IMG/VR virus record: IMGVR_UViG_3300028410_000746
Length of the DNA stretch: 64,000 bases
DNA from: a virus
Lineage: Duplodnaviria; Caudoviricetes
Direction: 5' to 3' (one strand)
Shown here: piece after piece, positions 2,648 to 62,079 of the stretch
Layout: the number at the start of each line of letters is the position of its first letter
How positions within the stretch are numbered: the first letter of the stretch is position 1
Position numbers and translations under genes: made by a program
Notes under the pieces: model-generated
The model's database searches: none
Told to the model about the DNA's origin: nothing
Seen by the model: only the letters and a program-made list of their open reading frames with translations

Positions 2648-3064
2648 TCAGGAGAAGTGGGTTCCGAGGACCTCAGGGTTGATGCGGACCCCGTTCGAGC
2701 CCTTACCCTTCAGGCTCTCATCGGCTCGGCACTCGCGGCACCAGCTCTGGAGGTAGGTCTTGCCCCGAGCCTTGTAGAACCGGAGTCCGAAGGTCTCCTT
2801 GATCCCCTGGAGACCTTGAGCCTCCAGTCCACAGCAAGGGCAAGCGTGGACGATGTTCTCCCAGGGCTGGAGCCTTCCGACGAGACCCCTGTGGTCTCCG
2901 CGCGTCACCTCCGGCCAGCGGCTCACCAGGAGGTCGTAGAGGCTGCTCACCGCCTCCTCAGGGATCTCAGGGTTGGCGTGGGTCCAGCAGGCGATGAAAT
3001 CTTTGCGGAGGTTGAGGCTCTTGGCGTTCTTGAGGCTCTTGGCGGCGGCGTTCTGGACTTTCAT
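2648..3064 (-). CDS. Hypothetical protein, putative Zn finger (CPCC...CREC)
   Basis: ORF behind promoter module 2. Confidence 0.6.
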   Translation of the reverse strand: MKVQNAAAKSLKNAKSLNLRKDFIACWTHANPEIPEEAVSSLYDLLVSRWPEVTRGDHRGLVGRLQPWENIVHACPCCGLEAQGLQGIKETFGLRFYKARGKTYLQSWCRECRADESLKGKGSNGVRINPEVLGTHFS

Positions 3065-3155
3065 GACTTCCTCTCTTTCGTGTTGCGCCGTGATCCGGCG
3101 CCGTGTCTCTCTTGTCTCTCACCTCTCATGTACCACAAGGAGTGGGGAGCGTAAA
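3065..3155 (-). promoter_or_regulatory. Repeated promoter plus leader, module 2
   Basis: Near-identical to module 1. Confidence 0.7.
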
Positions 3156-3770: not shown

Positions 3771-3888
3771 TGTTCTCTCCTGTATCGTGGTGCGCCGTTG
3801 GGGCGTGGTGCGCCGTGATCCGGCGCCGTAGTGTGTTGCTCTCTCTTACACACTCTATATACCACAAGGGGTAGGGGTCGTAAAAACT
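3771..3888 (-). promoter_or_regulatory. Repeated promoter plus leader, module 3
   Basis: TTTACG-N17-TATATA; leader with repeated CGGCGC motifs. Confidence 0.7.
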
Positions 3889-3956: not shown

Positions 3957-3980
3957 CGGGAGTGTTGAAGGAGAGGGCCG

Positions 3981-4370
3981 TCAGCGTGCGTGGTTCACGT
4001 TGACGTAGAAGTTAACGTGGAAGTAGTCGCTCGCCATGTCCGAGCCGTCGAAGTTGTAGGCCTTGGCGATCGCCTCCAAGGCGGCATCCACCGCTTTGCG
4101 CTGGTCGGAGTAGACACTCTCGACCCGGTACATGGCCTTCTCCATATCGGACGCCTCGCGGCGCAGCTCGTAGGCGTACTCCTTGACCTCGATGCTGAGG
4201 CTCTGACCCCCTGAGTAGCGCTTGATGCGCACGCTCGCCTTGATCTTGGGGAGGTCCCCCGCCTTGACGGCGGCCTTGATGTCCTGGCGGACCTTCTTGG
4301 CGATCTCGGAAATGTCAAGGCCCTGCTCGTACTTGGAACCGTAAGCGACGGAGTAATCAGGAGCGTGCAT
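3981..4370 (-). CDS. LPD29-like (large polyvalent protein-associated domain 29) protein
   Basis: AKKVRQDIK..SVRIKRYSGGQSLSIEV..SDMASDYFHVNFY matches the LPD29 pattern as recalled. Confidence 0.65.
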   Translation of the reverse strand: MHAPDYSVAYGSKYEQGLDISEIAKKVRQDIKAAVKAGDLPKIKASVRIKRYSGGQSLSIEVKEYAYELRREASDMEKAMYRVESVYSDQRKAVDAALEAIAKAYNFDGSDMASDYFHVNFYVNVNHAR

Positions 4371-4558: not shown

Positions 4559-4882
4559 TCAGGAGCGGGGGGTCGGACGCGGCCGCGCGAGGAGCCTCTC
4601 CATCACAGCATCGTTCTGAGCGGCCCGACATTGCGCCTCAACGCCCTGGAGGCCCCAGACTCGACCCAGGACCATGAGAGCCTCACACCACTCCTGAGGC
4701 GTCTCAGGAGCGCGACCACGGCCCTTCTCGAAGGCCACCCGCACCTGACGGTTTAGCCGGGGAGAGCCGACCCACTCCAACCGGGCGAGTAGACCCGCCT
4801 GAACCTTGTAGTAGGCCCGAGCCTCCGCGTCGTCGGCGGGCGCGGTGTAGTCGAGCTTGGCGAGCTGTGCGTCGTAATCCAT
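4559..4882 (-). CDS. Hypothetical protein
   Basis: ORF downstream of a promoter copy at about 4920-4953. Confidence 0.55.
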   Translation of the reverse strand: MDYDAQLAKLDYTAPADDAEARAYYKVQAGLLARLEWVGSPRLNRQVRVAFEKGRGRAPETPQEWCEALMVLGRVWGLQGVEAQCRAAQNDAVMERLLARPRPTPRS

Positions 4883-5495: not shown

Positions 5496-6086
5496 CTACT
5501 CTATACCACACGACGGGCTCCTCGTAAGAAGTTCGCCGTCTTTTATCCGAGACATGGCCCAACCGCCCTTCGGCGCGCGCACGACCTGGAAGCGGTACGG
5601 CGTGTCCGGGAACGCAAGCTCAACCCCCTCGTCGAGGTCCCGGATGTGGATGTACAGATCGCCTGCCGCGTTGAACCACCGGCGCGTCTGGTCCCACCTT
5701 GGGTGAATCCGATCGTACTCCTTGAGGTTGCCTTCTTCGAGGAGCTGCTCCGGCTCTTCCATGATCGCGTACCACGGCCGGGAGTAGCGCACAGGGGGCG
5801 GGTACGGAAAGGGCTCCTTGCCCGACCGTAGACGCCTCAAGAGTGCCGAGTGTTGTGCGTCGGTCACCAGACGTCCAACGGTGTTCGGATACTTGCCCTC
5901 AGGCCCACCGGGTCGGCAGGCCTCAAAACGGACCCGAAGCCACGTCAAGACGTGCTCGACCTCTTGCCCCTCGTAAGGGCTGAAGAGGTCGCGCAAGAAA
6001 GCCTCACGTCTCGCCGGCGTCTCGGGGATGGCCGTGTGGCTGCCGACCTCATCCCGTATCTGACTGTAGTTCAAAGGAACCTTCAT
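5496..6086 (-). CDS. Hypothetical protein
   Basis: ATG immediately follows the TAG of the upstream gene, in frame. Confidence 0.55.
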   Translation of the reverse strand: MKVPLNYSQIRDEVGSHTAIPETPARREAFLRDLFSPYEGQEVEHVLTWLRVRFEACRPGGPEGKYPNTVGRLVTDAQHSALLRRLRSGKEPFPYPPPVRYSRPWYAIMEEPEQLLEEGNLKEYDRIHPRWDQTRRWFNAAGDLYIHIRDLDEGVELAFPDTPYRFQVVRAPKGGWAMSRIKDGELLTRSPSCGIE

Positions 6087-7097
6087 CTAATCCTCCGGGA
6101 CGTCTAAAGACCTCAAGTGTTCCACAGCCTCCGCCCTCTTGGCAAGCAGGTACTCATCCTTGAGCTGCTGGGTTCTCTTCTCCTGGCGAGACCACGCGTC
6201 GACATACTCGAAGTCCTGATCACTTACAGCCGGAAGCGCCTCGAACCGAGGGGACGCCTCAAGACCGGCGAGACGTTCTCCAAATCGCGCTGAGAAGGTC
6301 TCGAACAACTCACGCGCTTCCTGGCGCATGACCGCCTTGTGGCCACACGTGGAAGCCAAATACAGCGCCTCATGGGCCAGAAGAAGCCAGTCGTCTTGTA
6401 TGTCTTCGGGGATCAACTGAATGCTCCCACGAAGACTGCGCAAGGGGAGCGGCTGCCCTTCTCCGAGAGACCCTCGATCTGCTTCCAAGCGCTCCGCTGC
6501 CCAACGCCCAGCCTCCCGACGGGCTCGGCTATGAGCTACGATCTCTTCGCCCACCATAAAAGGCTCCAGCTCCTCCCAGGTCCCAGGTAGAGCGTTCTGT
6601 TGATACAAGGCTTCGCATACGAGGTCGATCTCCTGAAGCAGAGCCTCAGCAGCAGAAGGCTCCGATTCCCCGCCTCCAACATCCGGAAGGTCCGACCAGT
6701 GCAAGTCAGGCCACGTCACGATCTGACCATCCAGCCACGCGTATCCCGTACCCGAGCTAAAGAAACAGTCAGACAGAACGCTCCAGCGGGTGTGGTACAG
6801 ATCACCATACTCGCGGTAGCACCACTCAAAGAGGCGCTCTACAGTGCTGTCGTACAACCCCTGCTGGTGTTCCCGGACGAAACGTCTCCCCTTGGCCAAG
6901 GCGACCTCTTTCGTGGGAGACATGCGACATGCTGCCTGGACATGGGAGCCCTGACGTGGGATCTGCTCGATATACGAGGACATCCAATTGACACCCTGAG
7001 GGTAATCAATACGAATGCAACACTGCCACGCCTCACCAAACATCCAGCACGCGACCTCATATCGGCCCTGCGTGAATTCTTCCCGCTCCTCACTCAT
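6087..7097 (-). CDS. Hypothetical protein (start MSEERE)
   Basis: Start overlaps the upstream stop; ends in TAG. Confidence 0.6.
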   Translation of the reverse strand: MSEEREEFTQGRYEVACWMFGEAWQCCIRIDYPQGVNWMSSYIEQIPRQGSHVQAACRMSPTKEVALAKGRRFVREHQQGLYDSTVERLFEWCYREYGDLYHTRWSVLSDCFFSSGTGYAWLDGQIVTWPDLHWSDLPDVGGGESEPSAAEALLQEIDLVCEALYQQNALPGTWEELEPFMVGEEIVAHSRARREAGRWAAERLEADRGSLGEGQPLPLRSLRGSIQLIPEDIQDDWLLLAHEALYLASTCGHKAVMRQEARELFETFSARFGERLAGLEASPRFEALPAVSDQDFEYVDAWSRQEKRTQQLKDEYLLAKRAEAVEHLRSLDVPED

Positions 7098-7351
7098 CTC
7101 ATTATCCCGAGCTTGGCATAGGCCTTGAGGGCGCGTTGAAGGCCGTCGGCTCGGTTGGCCGTGCCGGGCTTGGACGTGTGCACCTCCATACCCCTCATGC
7201 AAATTGCGTAGAACGGAAGGCCCGACCAGGGGCTCTTGGACTCCTGGAGCAACTCACACCTCCAGACCTCCGCGCCATCATCGAGATCTCGAATCTTGAC
7301 CGCTTTGAGGTCCTCGCGCTGGTCGATACGCGACTCTATCTTGTCTGCCAT
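7094..7351 (-). CDS. Hypothetical protein
   Basis: Tiles operon. Confidence 0.5.
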   Translation of the reverse strand: MADKIESRIDQREDLKAVKIRDLDDGAEVWRCELLQESKSPWSGLPFYAICMRGMEVHTSKPGTANRADGLQRALKAYAKLGIMR

Positions 7352-10498: not shown

Positions 10499-10640
10499 TC
10501 TGTGCCAAGAAGTCACAGGGTAGGGAACACGTAAGTATTCGGTTTTCAAAGACTTTCAGGGTTCAGTGTCAAAGAGCGTCACCCTTGGGCGACCTCTCCG
10601 ACGTCCTTATGGTAACCACACCTAAGAGGGCCTGTCAAGC
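10499..10640 (-). promoter_or_regulatory. CRISPR leader with sigma70 promoter (leader copy 1)
   Basis: TTGACA-N18-TACCAT; highly similar to 39984-40125 and 44025-44165. Confidence 0.8.
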
Positions 10641-11171
10641 GCCGCGCAACGGTCGAAACGTCAAGTTGATGCGAGGCTCAGAGACACGGGCACGCTTGGG
10701 GAGGCTGTGCTCCCACTCGCGCTGAGTCCCCGCAGGCATGACGAGAAGGCTGCCGTCCGTGAGCGCGAAGGAGAGCTTCTCCTTGTGGTCCACCTTGCGG
10801 CGCATCTTGAAGTCTCGGGCAGCTCCAAACGACAGGGAGGCGATCACCGGGTCATCCCCGAACAGCGGCTCATCGTCCGCGTGCCAGCCAATGCGGTCCG
10901 AGCCGTCCCGGTAGAGGTTGGCCAGCATCGTGGGGAGCTTGCAACCCACATGAGCCTCGACCTTCTCCTGGAGCGACTTGAGGAGAGCAGAAGGAAGCTC
11001 CCGAGCCCCCCACTGTAGGTTGGAGTACGTGTAAGAGACCGGACCGTACCACGCAGTCAAGCGAGGCTGTGGGTGCTCTTTGCCGTAGACCACAATCATG
11101 CGCTGTTCAAAGGCGAGCAGACTGCGCAGCTCCTCGAAATCCATCTCCACGAACTGCTCTATCAATTCCAT
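10635..11171 (-). CDS. alkB: 2OG-Fe(II) dioxygenase, AlkB (ALKBH2/3-like) family
   Basis: QPRLTAWYG, LANLYRDGSDRIGWHADDE, IASLSFG, WEHSLPK, RINLTFR. Confidence 0.92.
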   Translation of the reverse strand: MELIEQFVEMDFEELRSLLAFEQRMIVVYGKEHPQPRLTAWYGPVSYTYSNLQWGARELPSALLKSLQEKVEAHVGCKLPTMLANLYRDGSDRIGWHADDEPLFGDDPVIASLSFGAARDFKMRRKVDHKEKLSFALTDGSLLVMPAGTQREWEHSLPKRARVSEPRINLTFRPLRGA

Positions 11172-11227
11172 CACGGTGCTCCAGGGCAAAGGGTGATGAG
11201 CTACCCTAGCCCGAAGAGAGCGTAAAG

Positions 11228-11602
11228 TCAACCGGCAGACAGCACCAAGCGCCAGATCGTCCACGCACACAGGAGGTGGTACGTGTTGTCGACGATGATC
11301 ACGGACCACGGCCCCATGTTGTCACGGAACCCCGTCTGACCTGCCTTACCCATCCAGGCGGCGGCGAGACGGTAGCGGTCGACCGGGTAGTGCGTGGCCC
11401 AAATGGCAGCGTAGGCCCACCACGGCCAGACATCCCCCATGACCCAGGTGAAGCAGACAAACATCAACGTATAGAGCGTCACATGCACCAGACACGCTGC
11501 CGTGCCCTCCCAGGTACGTGCGCTCTTGTTCTGCGCCATCCAGTCGTTCTGGTAGACGTAATCACCCACGAGGTGAACCAGAATAAGAGTACCCATATCC
11601 AT
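11228..11602 (-). CDS. DUF3307-like membrane protein
   Basis: HLVGDYVYQNDWMAQNK..H..THYPVD..DNTYH. Confidence 0.75.
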   Translation of the reverse strand: MDMGTLILVHLVGDYVYQNDWMAQNKSARTWEGTAACLVHVTLYTLMFVCFTWVMGDVWPWWAYAAIWATHYPVDRYRLAAAWMGKAGQTGFRDNMGPWSVIIVDNTYHLLCAWTIWRLVLSAG

Positions 11603-14823: not shown

Positions 14824-15594
14824 TCAGCGGTAGAGCTTGAGCTTCCCGGTGATAGGGTCAAGGTCCTCCGCGTACTCCGGACCTATCGCCAAGGCCGTCG
14901 TCTGCGCGCCCGCAAAGATCGTCCGACCCTCATCGACCACGAGAGCGGTACGCAGGCCTGCCTCCTGTGCGGCAGCGTACAGCGCGAGCATCTCCGACTC
15001 GCTGTCAACTCCCAACACGATCTTGACGTGAGAGCCCTTGCTCCACGCGAGGTCGAGCGGTCTCATCTTCAGCGTCAGGTCTCCAGGTCCCGATGTGAGG
15101 GCCTCGCCCATGAACGCCTTGAGGCTGGCATGAGCAGCCTGCGCCGCTGCCTTGCCTGCGGGCATCTTGAGGTCGGTCCGTAGAATGATCACTTGCTTGG
15201 GCTCTCTCATCTCCATCACCTTGGTCTGTAGGGGGTTGAGCTGTAGGAGGTAGCGTTCTGCCTCCCGCGTATGCGTACACACGGTGGCTACGATCTTGGC
15301 CGGACGAAGCAGCGAAGCGTAAGCCATACCGTCAGCCGGATCAGTCGTCTCCTCCCAGGAGGACTCCAACTCCACCGCGTAGACGCCCGAGCCCACCCAG
15401 ACACCACTCTCCGTCAAGAGCACCGCCCCGCCTGAGCGAATATAGAAGGACAGCACATCATAGAGAGTCTTCCAGACGGTCCCCTCCACGTCCTTGTAGA
15501 TCGAGACGTCTCTCCACTTCTCGTAGGTCTGGAGGTTCCCGACCGTGTATGCGCGCGTGCCGGGGAGAGTCGGCACATCTTTGGACCAGCTCAT
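14824..15594 (-). CDS. pth2: Peptidyl-tRNA hydrolase Pth2 with an N-terminal extension (or an internal start)
   Basis: KQVIILRTDLKMPAGKAAAQAAHAS..VKIVL..VVDEGRT..TALAIGP..LDPITGKLKL. Confidence 0.88.
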   Translation of the reverse strand: MSWSKDVPTLPGTRAYTVGNLQTYEKWRDVSIYKDVEGTVWKTLYDVLSFYIRSGGAVLLTESGVWVGSGVYAVELESSWEETTDPADGMAYASLLRPAKIVATVCTHTREAERYLLQLNPLQTKVMEMREPKQVIILRTDLKMPAGKAAAQAAHASLKAFMGEALTSGPGDLTLKMRPLDLAWSKGSHVKIVLGVDSESEMLALYAAAQEAGLRTALVVDEGRTIFAGAQTTALAIGPEYAEDLDPITGKLKLYR

Positions 15595-19741: not shown

Positions 19742-19814
19742 TAGTCACGATGGGACTCGAACCCATACACGGGGATTTAGAATCCCCTGCTCTAACCCGT
19801 TGAGCTACACGACT
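19742..19814 (-). tRNA. tRNA-Sup(CUA), amber suppressor, copy 1
   Basis: Cloverleaf; anticodon arm GGGGA-TT CTA AA-TCCCC; A73; no encoded CCA. Confidence 0.9.
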
Positions 19815-19929
19815 GGAATGGAGAGGTAGGCACGTACTTGGTTTTTGCCGGACCAAAGCAGGCTCTTGGTTAGAAGACCCTGTACCCCCTCTCCATGCCG
19901 GGTACTATGCCACACCCCATGCGTAGGGG

Positions 19930-20880
19930 TCAAGACAAATAGGCACCCTCGGGACCACAAAGATCCAGGCGATCGCCAATGAGACCTCGCACGCGCGCAC
20001 GCTCGTCCGCATCCATGCGCGCCCACTGAGCCGCCACCTGCTCCCGGACCTCGGCAGGAACCTTATCCTTTGGAGAGGGTACCCACTCACGCAGGTACTG
20101 AATCATCTGGGCTGCGCGGTCCATGTCTGACGGCCGCCAGACGCACACACGCTCTCGCTCCTCCGTCACCGCCTTGACGGACTTGAAGGCCTCCTCAGAG
20201 TCGACGTCATTGTCCAGGTAGTCCTCCCAGCAGGCGCTGTTGAGGGCATTGAACGCAAGGTCCTGCTCTCCCTTCAGGTCGAGCACGAAGGCTTCGTACT
20301 CCTTGTGGTAGATCGCGTCTTCTTCTTTCCAGGTGAAGCTGCCGTCTTCCTGCCAGGACCCCTCAGTCGGGTCCAACCCTGACTCGAAGATCACGGGCCA
20401 CGGAACGTTGAGAGGCTCGCTGACGTCATACATCCGCACCTGATAGGGACACCCCCAGTAGCAGCCCTCCATGACCAGGAACTGCTTGCACGGCGACAGT
20501 TGCATCAACGCAATGCAGAACCCATGTCCGTCATTGGCCGCCTCGGAGAGGAAGTCGACCTGTTCGCCGTCGCTCAGGCGCACCACCGTATACCCCTGGT
20601 AGTCAAACCCACAGATCAAGTAGTCCTCGCCGTCCTCCGCGCCCACGAGGAACTCGTAAGGAAAAGACCCGAAGTTGCGGTCGACCCGCGCCACCTCGTC
20701 ATCTCCCCGATACACAATCCCACGAGAGTAGCCCCACGCCTCCTTTTCCGGATTATTCAGGTTGCCGATCACGAGTTGGTAGGTCTCGCAAGGGCTCATC
20801 CGGGGTGTGTCCCGCACCGTGAAATCCCAGTCGGACATGTCAGGGCGGTCGTAGGCTTCGGTCGTCGTCTCAGCACTCAT
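19930..20880 (-). CDS. Hypothetical acidic protein
   Basis: RBS GGAG; start MSAETT. Confidence 0.6.
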   Translation of the reverse strand: MSAETTTEAYDRPDMSDWDFTVRDTPRMSPCETYQLVIGNLNNPEKEAWGYSRGIVYRGDDEVARVDRNFGSFPYEFLVGAEDGEDYLICGFDYQGYTVVRLSDGEQVDFLSEAANDGHGFCIALMQLSPCKQFLVMEGCYWGCPYQVRMYDVSEPLNVPWPVIFESGLDPTEGSWQEDGSFTWKEEDAIYHKEYEAFVLDLKGEQDLAFNALNSACWEDYLDNDVDSEEAFKSVKAVTEERERVCVWRPSDMDRAAQMIQYLREWVPSPKDKVPAEVREQVAAQWARMDADERARVRGLIGDRLDLCGPEGAYLS

Positions 20881-21594: not shown

Positions 21595-21963
21595 CTATGG
21601 TGGAGGTCGAGAGGAGAGCGCCAAGGGCAAGCCACGGGTCACATGCAAGCACACGTAGTCATCCATCCCGTCGGGATCACCCAGGGGGCGGATCGCCACG
21701 GCGGTCACCGCGTCGCCGTAATACGGCTCACGGAAGACAGTGTGTGAGATGTGATGGGCTTGGAGCTTGGCGACGAGACTCACGAGGTGGTCTTCATCGC
21801 GGGCCGCCAGCATGACGATTCGGTTGGACACTGCGCGCCACGTAGCTACCCCATCCGAGGAGTCTAACGTGTGCTCAATGGCCGCATGAAGCGACTGAGC
21901 GGCCTGTTGCCCGGCAGATAGGTCTGCTCGGGTGACGACATAGAATTTAGCGTTCTACGACAT
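21595..21963 (-). CDS. Pth2-like protein with an in-frame amber codon at codon 3
   Basis: GGAG-N9-ATG TCG TAG AAC GCT AAA TTC TAT GTC = M-S-*-NAKFYVVTRADLSAGQQAAQSLHAA..RIVML..VFREP..TAVAIRP; 122 aa with readthrough. Confidence 0.8.
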
Positions 21964-42696: not shown

Positions 42697-42789
42697 GACC
42701 AGCTCCGTGTGTGTCTGTGTTGTCTTACACACCCTATATACCACAAGGGGGGGCCGTAAAAACTCATTCAGATTTTCGAGAGCAGTCCA

Positions 42790-42863
42790 TGCGCCGAGTG
42801 GGGCTCGAACCCACAACACGGGGATTTAGAATCCCCTGCTCTAACCCGTTGAGCTATCGGCGC
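42790..42863 (-). tRNA. tRNA-Sup(CUA), amber suppressor, copy 2
   Basis: Perfect 7-bp acceptor GCGCCGA/TCGGCGC; same D and anticodon arms as copy 1; A73. Confidence 0.92.
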
Positions 42864-42871
42864 TAAAACCT

Positions 42872-43127
42872 CGCAGAAGACTCCGGTTGTACGGCCGGAG
42901 TCCTCCTGTAGCCCTTATTAGGAGCGTCGTGTCAGGCAGCGGTATCACCCGCGTTCCGTCACCGAGGTGCTTGCCTTGAGTCAGTGTTTCCAGAAGCTGT
43001 GTGCTCCGCAGAACTGTCCGGTTATACGGCCGGAGTTCTTTGTAACCCTTACTAGGGGCGTCGTGCTAGACAGCGGTTTCATCCGCGTTCCGGCACCGGA
43101 GCTGCTCTGTCCTCACTGACTGAAGAC
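42872..43127 (-). ncRNA. Tandem pair of a ~125-nt structured RNA motif
   Basis: Two diverged copies with compensatory stem changes, between a promoter (about 43132-43163) and the CUA tRNA. Confidence 0.6.
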
Positions 43128-43170
43128 ACCCCCTATATACCACAAGAAAGAGACCCTGTAAAACTACTTC

Positions 43171-54247: not shown

Positions 54248-54309
54248 GCACTACCTCTCTGTGTCGATGTACGGACCGTGTATACCACACAGAATCGTAA
54301 GCGTAAAGC

Positions 54310-57670: not shown

Positions 57671-57742
57671 AGCCTCACGAGGGACTTGAACCCTCCTCTC
57701 GGCATTACAAAAGCCGCGCGGCGCCGTCTCCGCTTGGGTGGC
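57671..57742 (-). tRNA. tRNA-Thr(UGU), degenerate acceptor stem
   Basis: Loop TT TGT AA; two acceptor mismatches. Confidence 0.6.
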
Positions 57743-58322: not shown

Positions 58323-58633
58323 TGCGCAAACCATGGGTGTGCCGTGACTCCCCGACCGCCGCAGTCGTCACATGGAGGATGAGAATAGAGAACCCCCTCG
58401 CCGCCACACGCGCCACACTCAAGGTCGTAGAGGACCCCTTGGTAGTCACACCTCGCGCAGCCGTCCGGATCTTCCCCGTCTCCTTCCCCTCCGCAGGCCG
58501 GACACGGAATCTCTTCCAGGAAGCCATCCCCCCGACAGACCTCGCACTCGGTCTCCAGGAGGAGATCCTTTCGGACCCCCTCCATCATACAGACCTCGCA
58601 CTCGACGAGCATTGTGGGAGGCATGGGACTCAT
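58319..58633 (-). CDS. DnaJ-type CxxCxGxG Zn-finger protein
   Basis: Multiple CxxCxGxG repeats. Confidence 0.7.
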   Translation of the reverse strand: MSPMPPTMLVECEVCMMEGVRKDLLLETECEVCRGDGFLEEIPCPACGGEGDGEDPDGCARCDYQGVLYDLECGACGGEGVLYSHPPCDDCGGRGVTAHPWFAQ

Positions 58634-61600
58634 ACAGACGGCTCCTGGACGAAGGGCTCGGTCACCGGGAGAGCCTTGGTCCAGTCACGAAGAACGTCTC
58701 GGAACACCAGCGGCGGAATCTGCTCCACGCGGTCCACCGGGTAGAACGTCATTTCGCTGAGCACCAGGGCGTCCACGTCACGCAGGTCCTTGGTACACTG
58801 CGAGGGCATGATGACCTCACGGATGCCCGCGCGATGCGCGGCGATGACCTTCTCCTTGATGCCGCCGACCGGGAGCACCTGACCCGTGAGCGTAATCTCA
58901 CCGGTCATGGCCACCTCTCGGCGCAGCTTGAGCCCCGCGAAGCGAGAGAGCAAGGCGCTGAACATCGTGATGCCTGCGGAGGGACCATCCTTGGGGATGG
59001 CGCCAGCCGGCACGTGGATGTGAAGGTCGTGCGACTTGATCATGTTGGTGTCTACTCCATACAGATCGCCATGCGCACGCAGGTAGCTCAGGGCAGCCCG
59101 GACAGACTCCTTCATGACGTCTCCGAGCTGGCCCGTCAGCGTCACCTCACCCTTACCCCCTTTCATCGCCTGCACCTCAATGAAGAGGATGTCTCCACCT
59201 ACCGCCGTCCAGGCCAAGCCCGTTGCCACGCCCTCCTGATCCTCACGCTGCGACACCTCCGAGATGTACCGAACGGGACCCAGCGCCTTCTCGACCCGCC
59301 CCATGTCCAGGGGGAACACCGCACCGAGACGCTCAGCCTCCGGAAGCTTGACGACATCCACAGCGATAGAGCGGCACAGGTCTCCCAGCCTACGGTTCAG
59401 GCTACGGACGCCCGCCTCACGGGTGTACTTGTCCACCACGTGGTGGACCACCCCATCCGCGACCTCGATCTGGTCGGGCCCCAGACCGTGGGCGGCTACC
59501 TGCTTGGGGAAGAGATAGCGAGTCGCGATCTCATTCTTCTCGAACATCGTGTAGCTGGGGACCTCCAGGATCTCCATACGGTCACGCAGCGGAGCCGAGA
59601 TCGTATCCAACCGGTTGGCCGTGGCGATGAAGAGGACCTTGGACAGGTCAAGGTCTATCTCCAGGTAGTGGTCGTTGAACGTCGAGTTCTGAGCCGGATC
59701 AAGAACCTCCAGGAACGCGGCGGCGGGGTCGCCTCGGAAGTCCGAGCCCACCTTGTCGATCTCGTCCAGGAGGATGACCGGGTTCATCGTGCCGGCCTTC
59801 TGAAGCGCTCGAACGATGCGGCCCGGCATGGCGCCCACATAGGTACGACGGTGACCACGGATCTCGGACTCGTCGTGCATACCTCCAAGGGAGATGCGCG
59901 CGAACTTGCGGCCCATCGTCCGGGCAATGGACTTGGCGATGGACGTGTTATGCGTCACAATCACGTCATCAGTGATGTAAAGAGAATCAGGAGCAGAGAC
60001 CTTGATGCACTGAGTCTCCTTGACACCTACCGCTACGATATCAGAGATGAACCTCTTGGGAGCGTACTTACTCTTGGAGACCCACCGCTGAGCTTTGGCG
60101 TCACACCAGAAGGGACACTGACCCGCCGACATTGAGACCGTCACGTTGTACGCCAGACGACCCGAACGCCTCTCCCCATCAACCGTATATGACGGCTTTT
60201 TCATCGTCACCCGTGTCACCCCCCCAAGCGACCGGACCAACCACTGCACGTCATCACACAATCGCGTCGACGTCGTACAAAAAGAAACCCTACAACCCGT
60301 CGCGTCTACAGTACCGCCAGTGTCCATCAAGCCCTGCAAAAGAGCGAGCCTCTGCTCTACCGAGCCGTAAAGGTACACATAAGGTACATGCTTTTCGTAC
60401 GAGTAGAGCCCCGTAAGTTCCAGAGCATCCAGCTCCACCTGCAACGCGTCCCGTACAGACCCCTTTCGCCCTGCGGTCAAACGATAGTCACAGGTCTCCG
60501 ACGCTTGCTTGCGCATCCGAACCTCCCCCGGCAAGGCGGCAGCTACGCGTGCGCAAATATCACCCTCTGGGTTTGAAAAACCAACGGAAGCTCCCGTAAG
60601 GCCTCCATCTCCCAAGAGCGCCCCCAAGAGGTACGGGTCAAGGGGTACGGACTTTTCCGCAAACTCCAAGGGCTGGGTCAGAGGGATAGAATGGTTGCGG
60701 CGAGCGTCCGAGCCGTACCGAAGCGTCTCTCGGATTTGCTCCAGAGACTTCACCGACCCCTCACGGGAAGCCTTCCGATCGAGGTCGGTATGCGTGTACC
60801 ACAAGTGCTCGTCGCAACACTCTGTTGATGAGCCGTCTTGAAACTCCACACGATACACCGGCCGCGTGCCTTGAGGGAACGCGCCCTCCACGTGATGAAC
60901 GCCCCCGTCCGCACCCATGACCGCATCACCTACCGCAAGCGTACCCATCGCAACCCAACCCTTCGGGGTCAACACCCGCGCATCCAAAGGCTGCGCCTTG
61001 CCCACACCGGGAGGGCCCACGAAGCACAGGATCGGGCCGTTCATGTCCTGCTTGAGCGCCTGAACAGCCAGATGCTCGACCACCCTTCGCTTCACCTTCT
61101 CCAGGCCGTAGTGGTCCGCGTCGAGCACATCCTCCGCGCGGACGACATCCAGGTTGTCCTCGCTCTCGACGCCCCACGGCACATCGAGCATCTGCTGGAT
61201 GTAGTTGAGCGTCACCGAATACTCGGAGCTGGCCGGCTGCATCGCGTCGAGTCGACGATGCTGCTTCAGGACCGCAGCCTCCACCTCCTCAGGCATGTCT
61301 GCCTCCTGAATACGCTCAAGCAGCTCCTCCGTCTCGGAGATGTCCTCACCGAGCTGGTCCTTGATGACCTTGAGCTGCTGGCGAAGGATGTACTCACGCT
61401 GAATAGACTTGCTGCGCTCCTGGAGCGACTGGTTGATCTCACCCGCCAGCTCCTGGCGCGCGATACGCTCCCCCAGGATGCGCAGACACCGAGACGCGCG
61501 CTCCGTGATGTTCGGCTCCAGGTAGAGAGCCAACAGGTCCTCATCCTCGAAGCGGGGCGCGAGCATGTCTGTAAGGTCTGAGAGGGAGCCCACAGCACGC

Positions 61601-62079
61601 ACGCGCTCGAACTCCTGCTCGGGAGCGTCCGGATCGTCTCCCAGGACCTGAAGCGTCTTCTCCTGAAGCGCCTCGAACAGCGCTTCATTGTACTCCGCCT
61701 CCTTGTCGAACTCCGGTCCAATGACCTCGAAGTGACCCATCAACGGCGCGGAGGCATCCTCCGGAATCTCAAGATCCAGGAGCCTCAGCCTCACCTCCCC
61801 GGAAGAAATGACCGTATAGTCGTTCGCGTTCGGGTTCGGGATGATCTTGATGCAGGACACCAGGGTCGCGATCTCGTGGACCTCATCCATCGAGGACAGC
61901 GTGAGCACGTCCGGAGACTTCTGAAGCACGACCGCGATCTTGAAAGGCGCCGGCGAGTCTGCACCCTCAATGACCGCCAGGGAGCGTGCTCGACCGACCC
62001 GAACAGGGATCATCTGTAGCGGGAAAAGAGGGTTCTCGCGCATGGCGATCACGGGAAGGTACAGGGTGTCAGCGCTCAT
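58630..62079 (-). CDS. lon: ATP-dependent Lon protease containing an intein
   Basis: LON N-domain, GPPGVGK|T, LLDEIDK, DGPSAG catalytic Ser, IGGIKEK-type VGGIKEK. Confidence 0.97.
59947..60996 (-). mobile_element. Class-3 intein (350 aa) with a LAGLIDADG domain in the Lon P-loop
   Basis: Starts AQPLD, ends VTHN before Thr+1; WCT signature (HLW, TQC, VTHN). Confidence 0.92.

Follow-up and report, generated by a model that had tools for sequence, protein, structure and literature searches.

The question raised by the locus considered here is why the genome of a phage that uses the standard genetic code should carry two tRNA genes with the anticodon CUA, complementary to the amber codon, and which amino acid the corresponding tRNAs would deliver. 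The whole stretch of DNA analysed, 64,000 nucleotides long and hereafter called the window, could be placed by exact protein matches on the ENA contig ERZ27315555:k141_181878 (373,477 bp), the ends of which it crosses through a 118-nt terminal overlap, so that the genome is circularly assembled. The phage has a GC content of 60% and encodes proteins of the huge-phage type (GyrB, Cpn60, a sigma factor, dUTPase, Ig-repeat proteins and a Lon protease with a probable intein). Most of the proteins of the phage have no assigned family, among them large ones of 1,100-1,500 aa. No near match to it was found among 50,697 phage records. The phage sequence is contained in four lake-water metagenome runs (DNA). 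The Logan contigs break at the 41-nt core shared by the two tRNA genes, and the depth of this core is about twice that of its flanks, as expected for two genuine copies; the contigs of the four runs yielded no informative variants in the tRNA. The features discussed below are collected in table 1.

Table 1. Coordinates of the features discussed, in the window unless another locus is named.
Feature	Position	Strand	Basis or remark
tRNA(CUA) gene, copy A (73 nt)	19742-19814	minus	ARAGORN and Rfam RF00005
Structured 89-nt leader, from promoter candidate to copy A	19815-19903	minus	-35.5 kcal/mol, z = -3.3
Sigma-70-like promoter candidate upstream of copy A, TTGACC-18-CATAGT, TG before the -10	19904-19933	minus	consensus match only
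tRNA(CUA) gene, copy B (74 nt)	42790-42863	minus	ARAGORN and Rfam RF00005
Tandem pair of structured RNA units, each about 130 nt, adjoining copy B on its upstream side	42864-43123	minus	z = -4.4
Promoter candidate upstream of copy B, TTTACA-17-TATATA	43134-43162	minus	within motif TGTGGTATATAGGG
Sites of motif TGTGGTATATAGGG	3853-3866; 42732-42745; 43131-43144; 54276-54289	minus	up to 2 mismatches
PTH2-like gene, starting ATG TCG TAG AAC	21595-21963 (TAG, 21955-21957)	minus	Pfam
Second, canonical PTH2 gene	14824-15594	minus	Pfam 102.6 bits, domain at residues 133-255, no TAG
AlkB-type 2OG-Fe(II) oxygenase gene	10635-11309	minus	99 bits
Additional tRNA call	57671-57742	minus	Rfam 38.4 bits, not in ARAGORN output
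Lon protease gene (1149 aa)	58630-62079	minus	AAA domain interrupted by a LAGLIDADG-type insertion, a probable intein
Mycobacterium phage Bxz1, ATG TAG GTG	3974-3982 of the locus examined		
Mycobacterium phage Bxz1, tRNA-like gene gt155	4660-4733 of the locus examined		
Aeromonas phage Akh-2 (MK318083.1), tRNA-Sup-CTA	2994-3068 of the locus examined		

Fifteen tRNA genes were identified in the window by ARAGORN, all on the minus strand, and two of them (copies A and B) have the anticodon CUA. Their Rfam RF00005 scores (65.7 bits for copy A and 68.1 bits for copy B, E about 1e-12) are near the top of those found in the window, and no non-standard pair was flagged in either, all 21 pairs being standard in each copy. 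Both adopt the canonical elongator cloverleaf, with 7/4/5/5-bp stems, U8, A14, G18-G19, U33, a UUCGA T loop and a 7-nt anticodon loop (UU-CUA-AA) in which C34-U35-A36 is in the canonical register according to both programs. The D loop is of 9 nt, with one base extra; A73 is present in both copies and CCA is encoded in neither. The anticodon loop, U33-CUA-A37-A38 on an A31-U39 closing pair, presents a context common to tRNAs reading U-initial codons, and should be a MiaA substrate.

The original prediction had pointed to a 27-mer that includes the anticodon and is common to the two genes. It is indeed present in both, and the identity in fact extends over 41 of 41 nucleotides from U8 to U47, namely the D arm, A26, the anticodon arm (GGGGA/UCCCC and its loop) and G44-U45-G46-U47. 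Outside this core 15 of 32 positions differ, in addition to one indel, the differences being found at six of the seven positions of each acceptor strand, at one T-stem pair and at position 60. The acceptor stem is AGUCGUG/CGUGACU, including two G-U pairs, in copy A, which has a 4-nt variable loop, and GCGCCGA/UCGGCGC in copy B, with a 5-nt variable loop. With about half of the non-core positions diverged, an uninterrupted run of 41 identical nucleotides points to a strong constraint, or to gene conversion, acting on the Phe-specific and decoding part of the molecule. Pairing was also analysed in an alignment of three CUA tRNAs (copies A and B and that of the viral contig IMGVR_UViG_3300033143_002422, discussed below) with two tRNA-Phe. 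Standard pairs are formed in 105 of 105 stem cells; nine pairs have both partners replaced, of which six are in the acceptor stem and the other three in the T stem, there is no variation in the D and anticodon stems, and none of the shuffles and slid registers approached the observed pairing. The acceptor stems of the two copies, which had been proposed to imply maintained function by being different yet paired, are fully compensated. Copies A and B most likely encode functional amber-suppressor tRNAs, as far as can be judged from their sequences.

The label given by ARAGORN to both genes is tRNA-Pyl, an assignment that follows from the anticodon alone. It is contradicted by the presence of U8 A9 between the acceptor and D stems and by the 9-nt D loop with G18-G19, and further by the UUCGA T loop, the 5-bp anticodon stem, the variable loop of 4 or 5 nt and A73, some of the features that set tRNA-Pyl apart being given in PMC11122139. 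No pyl genes were found in the Pfam results for the region covered. Separately, the additional tRNA call of table 1, which adjoins genes for tRNA-Thr and tRNA-Leu, has two acceptor-stem mismatches and a seemingly oversized anticodon loop, and probably represents either a tRNA-like element or a tRNA undergoing decay.

The likeness of the core to E. coli tRNA-Phe, as initially proposed, was confirmed by database searches. When copy B was compared by blastn with 5,426 complete E. coli genomes, it matched tRNA-Phe genes only, at two places per genome, with no match to other isotypes even at E = 10. At least 120 bacterial genomes contain an exact match to the 27-mer with GAA in place of CTA, and all of the 125 tRNAs carrying it among the matches listed were identified as tRNA-Phe(GAA) by ARAGORN. 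The commonest carrier among the matches listed is the enterobacterial tRNA-Phe, with the same sequence in the Salmonella locus that was aligned, and the genomes, again among the matches listed, belong for the most part to Gammaproteobacteria and also include Alphaproteobacteria, Myxococcota and Verrucomicrobiota. By comparison with all 67 tRNAs of one complete Pseudomonas genome, with the anticodon masked, Phe was found to be the nearest isotype for copy A, copy B and the tRNA of IMGVR_UViG_3300033143_002422. For the core, scores of 0.85-0.90 were obtained with Phe, followed by Met (0.74), and of 0.63-0.68 with Lys. Over the full length the values are 0.72-0.79 for Phe and 0.70-0.72 for His, so that the Phe margin over His is only 0.01-0.06. 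Neither the acceptor arm nor the T arm is Phe-like, and the resemblance is limited to the D and anticodon arms and the variable loop; the T arm of copy B matches that of a phage tRNA-Lys. From these comparisons, the three Phe-like elements most likely derive from a tRNA-Phe of the proteobacterial type.

The CTA version of the 27-mer was not recovered from a collection of genomes of 185,579 species, nor from JGI metagenome contigs, and it occurs only once elsewhere in IMG/VR, in IMGVR_UViG_3300033143_002422, an unrelated viral contig of 42% GC. The GAA version has 28 occurrences in IMG/VR, mostly at contig ends, which are read as host tRNA-Phe genes at prophage borders. Searches with the 17-mer of the anticodon arm gave, besides the same contig, IMG/VR matches that were rejected, since they are tRNA-Leu(UAG) genes read in antisense, apart from one simple hairpin. 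The tRNA(CUA) of IMGVR_UViG_3300033143_002422 is the sole other natural member found. It has the exact 27-mer, the variable loop GUGUC, the T stem GUGGG/CCCAC and A73, and differs from the copies studied here by encoding CCA, by having U1-A72 as the first pair and by a D loop without the GG pair.

Recognition by PheRS is a different matter. The Phe elements retained, some of which lie outside the published identity set, are A36, A73, A26, G27-C43, G28-C42, G44 and U45. The published set comprises G34, A35, A36 and A73, to which U20 and U59 are added for E. coli (PMC9976931). Of the G34-A35-A36 anticodon of tRNA-Phe only A36 is kept, the CUA anticodon necessarily entailing the loss of G34 and A35 and with them of two out of three PheRS determinants in the anticodon, and position 59, U as a determinant of E. 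coli PheRS, is G in both copies. Of U20 and A73, both initially listed as present, A73 stands for the two copies, and U20 only under one numbering of the 9-nt D loop (G18 G19 U20 U20a A21). E. coli tRNA-Phe(CUA), which had been called a known working suppressor, is listed as an established one in PMC11122139, and the plant tRNA-Phe(CUA) has been described as a poor PheRS substrate (PMC9976931).

The chance that the inserted residue is Phe is estimated, from the sequence features just described, as about even, because mischarging by LysRS or GlnRS is common among engineered CUA tRNAs that have A73. Insertion of Lys, Gln or a mixture of residues is about half as probable, and would correspond to working suppressors with the same role and charged mainly by these two enzymes, the alternative that survives best; the amino acid might even not be the same for both copies, as their acceptor stems differ. 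Recognition by LysRS and GlnRS centres on U35, and many engineered E. coli CUA tRNAs are charged in this way; the loss of G34 and A35 and the U59 to G replacement also speak for this alternative. A weak first pair A1-U72 and a G2-C71 pair, both found in copy A, are tolerated by GlnRS. The likeness of the T arm of copy B to that of a phage tRNA-Lys has been mentioned, and blastn against the phage records gives many matches to tRNA-Lys. Published recoded phages also read TAG as Gln (preprint 10.1101/2021.08.26.457843). However, the 41-nt core apparently held identical by selection is Phe-specific and is neither Lys- nor Gln-like, G73 and other acceptor elements of GlnRS are absent, and the tRNA-Lys matches reflect generic D- and T-arm similarity, the score of the core with Lys being as low as 0.63. 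Moreover, E. coli tRNA-Phe(CUA) is said, from work by Normanly in 1986, to insert Phe efficiently. No synthetase domains are present in the Pfam results for the about 110 kb described in the following.

The genetic code was analysed over about 110 kb, corresponding to about 29% of the 373-kb genome, that is, the window, an extension of 37.6 kb with 37 genes that reaches record position 98,303, and the 8 kb preceding the window. The 78 genes called in the window by codon usage end with TGA (63), TAG (7) or TAA (7), and those of the extension, where a gene of 1,520 aa and a portion of the virion module are located, with TGA (28), TAA (5) or TAG (4), giving 91 TGA, 12 TAA and 11 TAG stops for the 115 genes called in total. 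The 8 kb before the window contain intact genes for proteins of 1,157, 362 and 1,276 aa in the assembly's own gene calls. A first scan of the window and the 37.6-kb extension, for TAG codons with a coding signal on both flanks, returned a single match, a TAG-ATG junction between two adjacent genes. The TAG of this junction, in frame at 6087-6089, was considered as a recoding site joining the ORFs at 6087-7202 and 5496-6086, and was rejected in favour of ordinary adjacent genes because ATG directly follows TAG and GGAGGA is found upstream. A second scan, for TAG codons soon after a start codon, also covered the 8 kb before the window and returned one credible case, the PTH2-like gene. The TAG-terminated genes have no special tandem stops and no special extension lengths, and release-factor domains are absent from the Pfam results for the about 110 kb. 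In this region TAG is an ordinary stop and the standard code is used. With respect to the initial observation that the long genes have no in-frame TAG, this holds for the ORFs of 1271, 1149 and over 639 codons, which are open under table 11, and fails for the PTH2-like gene of the window, where TAG is codon 3. The genome-wide count of in-frame TAG codons that had been suggested as a check, run over the about 110 kb, identified this gene as the only one that needs UAG read-through.

The two genes at 5496-7202 (minus strand) deserve a comment of their own. They encode 371 and 196 aa in the same frame and are parted only by TAG-ATG, with A as the base after TAG, so that an active suppressor could possibly fuse them into a 568-aa product; the 196-aa gene also stops at TAG, which is followed by TGA one codon on.

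The PTH2-like gene reads ATG TCG TAG AAC GCT AAA TTC, and it also ends with TAG. The Pfam PTH2 match (35.4 bits, with a cut-off of 23) starts from residue 6, and the next canonical start is 41 codons past the TAG. In two homologues from other samples, 68-71% identical, the 14-mer CATGTCGTAGAACG is conserved, being invariant in the three genes, with flanking and following codons that vary at third positions and divergent 5' UTRs. The gene lies 1.8 kb upstream of copy A. The truncated product is not on record, nor is that of the neighbouring 339-aa gene, homologues of which are found in unrelated phages without a CUA tRNA. No loci related by the two neighbouring proteins were found in IMG/VR or among the JGI metagenome contigs, and the 11.7 kb of IMGVR_UViG_3300033143_002422 contain no PTH2-like gene. 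The UAG of this client is at a non-conserved N-terminal codon and thus carries no information on the residue inserted, the identity of which may matter little at such a position; what counts is that the tRNA can be charged when its anticodon is CUA, which Phe-type bodies are known to allow. The standard code in the about 110 kb, along with a single conserved amber client, agrees with the original prediction of conditional suppression rather than reassignment. As to the surroundings, two PTH2-family genes are present within 7 kb of phage DNA, the second, canonical one with a 130-aa N-terminal extension of no known family. The same neighbourhood of tRNA and PTH2 genes also includes the gene for an AlkB-type oxygenase, which could act on nucleic-acid methylation damage.

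Each copy appears, from the sequence motifs and predicted folds of table 1, to have its own promoter and structured leader. The promoter candidate of copy B is within the motif TGTGGTATATAGGG, another site of which lies a short distance past the downstream end of the same tRNA gene. Four matches with up to two mismatches are found where 0.13 would be expected, and the motif likely corresponds to the -10 region in a class of phage promoters. Each of the two units preceding copy B is predicted to fold as a closed multi-hairpin, cloverleaf-like, and the differences between the units keep the stems paired. The leader of copy A is unrelated to these tandem units, and neither leader has Rfam matches at E values up to 10. 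A ribosome-binding site and the start of a small ORF are found 21 nt past copy A. The presence of different promoters may be the reason why two copies are kept.

By combining these observations, a mechanism can be proposed, and is somewhat favoured, in which suppressors with a Phe core, charged with Phe by the host, would provide conditional read-through for a few clients rather than reassignment. The two tRNAs would be transcribed from separate promoters with structured leaders and, as CCA is not encoded, would depend on the cellular RNase P and CCA-adding enzyme. Host PheRS would most likely charge both with phenylalanine, and the charged tRNAs would compete with host RF1 at UAG. Since TAG is the ordinary stop of about one-tenth of the genes, read-through should be partial and conditional, and the PTH2-like gene, with UAG as its third codon, would be made only while the suppressor is active. 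A more specific version is tentative and rather doubtful. It proposes a natural device for decoding UAG as phenylalanine, built on a tRNA-Phe core, in which two suppressors with unrelated acceptor stems and different promoters provide staged gating. The one behind the tandem structured RNAs would contribute to a staged switch-on of read-through, which would gate the PTH2-like gene and perhaps other clients. Against a Phe reading count the absence of G34 and A35, G59, the extra D-loop base, the non-Phe acceptor and T arms and the slim margin over His; against gating counts the finding of one client for two tRNA genes in the about 110 kb.

The small number of clients may be explained in a different way if the tRNAs were directed to the host, by causing UAG read-through or titrating RF1 for takeover or anti-defence purposes, with the PTH2-like gene reporting or limiting the effect. 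Two copies with separate promoter candidates and a single small client found would be in line with this explanation, as would the second canonical PTH2 gene nearby, which would imply that this part of the genome handles translation by-products. However, such suppression would also lengthen the products of the phage genes that end in TAG, and the conservation of the amber start in the client speaks for a use dedicated to the phage itself, making a host-directed role improbable. Slightly less probable still is a reassignment of TAG in late or structural genes elsewhere in the 373 kb, as in crAss-like and Lak phages, with the window belonging to a standard-code part of the genome. Known recoded phages do keep their early regions standard (preprint 10.1101/2021.08.26.457843), about 263 kb lie outside the region covered, and there are two copies of the suppressor. 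Against it, very large genes that probably encode virion or surface proteins (1520, 1276, 1271 and 1157 aa) are without TAG, TAG terminates 11 of 115 genes, genes for release factors or synthetases were not seen in the about 110 kb, and the 60% GC content is unlike that of the low-GC recoded lineages. Finally, that the two genes are non-suppressors (decaying tRNA-Phe duplicates, decoys for tRNA-targeting enzymes or true tRNA-Pyl, as the ARAGORN label would have it) is very unlikely, given perfect cloverleaves with every pair compensated, a CUA core common to two diverged copies and an unrelated phage, and neither tRNA-Pyl marks nor a pyl gene in the region covered.

Among known systems, the closest to the Phe-core suppressors favoured here is the engineered E. 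coli tRNA-Phe(CUA) (Normanly et al. 1986, PNAS 83:6548, ref 183 in PMC11122139), which has the same D stem, A26, whole anticodon stem, U32-U33, A37-A38, G44-U47 and A73, and the same replacement of GAA with CUA. In contrast to it, the genes studied here occur naturally, as two copies in a phage genome, their acceptor and T arms are unrelated, and they have G59 instead of U59, a 9-nt D loop and no encoded CCA. Phage suppressor tRNAs are known mainly from recoded phages, their presence in standard-code phages having been left unexplained. The TAG-recoded phages (code 15; crAss-like and Lak, among others) also combine a phage tRNA reading UAG with a standard-code host, and their use of stop codons has been proposed to control timing (10.1101/2021.08.26.457843; PMC9523058). 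Their genomes tend to be low in GC, and TAG, decoded as Gln, is spread over many structural and lysis genes (10.1101/2021.08.26.457843; PMC9523058), in agreement with the initial statement that recoded phages usually employ Gln(CUA) and with the TAG to Gln assignment of the survey (10.1101/2021.08.26.457843). The phage studied here differs by its 60% GC, by TAG being a normal stop, by the one client found and by the Phe-type scaffold; in the about 110 kb an in-frame TAG is found in one gene, and TAG still terminates 11 of 115.

Cultured phages with the standard code and an orphan tRNA-Sup(CTA) are also known, namely Aeromonas phage Akh-2 and its relatives, Rhizobium phage RHph_I1_18 and the Bxz1-like mycobacteriophages. 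As in the present case, their CUA tRNA is within a phage tRNA region, but the scaffolds are different and none contains the 27-mer. The tRNA-Sup-CTA of Akh-2 has the G3-U70 mark of alanine tRNAs and a core that is not Phe-like, and its body is also unlike that of Akh-2's own tRNA-Phe; the CUA tRNA of RHph_I1_18 has a different anticodon stem. Homologues of the PTH2-like gene are found not only in Bxz1-like mycobacteriophages (206 records) but also in Xanthomonas phage XacN1 and in records of Stenotrophomonas and Tenacibaculum phages. The XacN1 gene has no early TAG. In Mycobacterium phage Bxz1, the PTH2-like gp154 has an in-frame ATG TAG directly before its annotated GTG start, and the tRNA-like gene gt155 is 300 nt downstream of it.

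Literature searches found no report of a natural suppressor of the Phe type or of amber-gated PTH2 genes, and what is new here is the occurrence of natural, duplicated and probably functional amber suppressors on a Phe scaffold in a huge phage with the standard code. The system is simple to test, and bears both on the amino acids that phages place at stop codons and on the purpose of 'orphan' suppressors. It also calls for caution in annotation pipelines, in which a CUA tRNA may be labelled Pyl, or assumed to be Gln, by default, and natural CUA tRNAs that are still accepted by host synthetases may be of interest for genetic-code engineering. The phages with a code differing from that of their host have been found to use only TAG to Gln and TGA to Trp (10.1101/2021.08.26.457843); if the phenylalanine reading is true, Phe would join Gln and Trp as the amino acids that phages assign to a stop codon.
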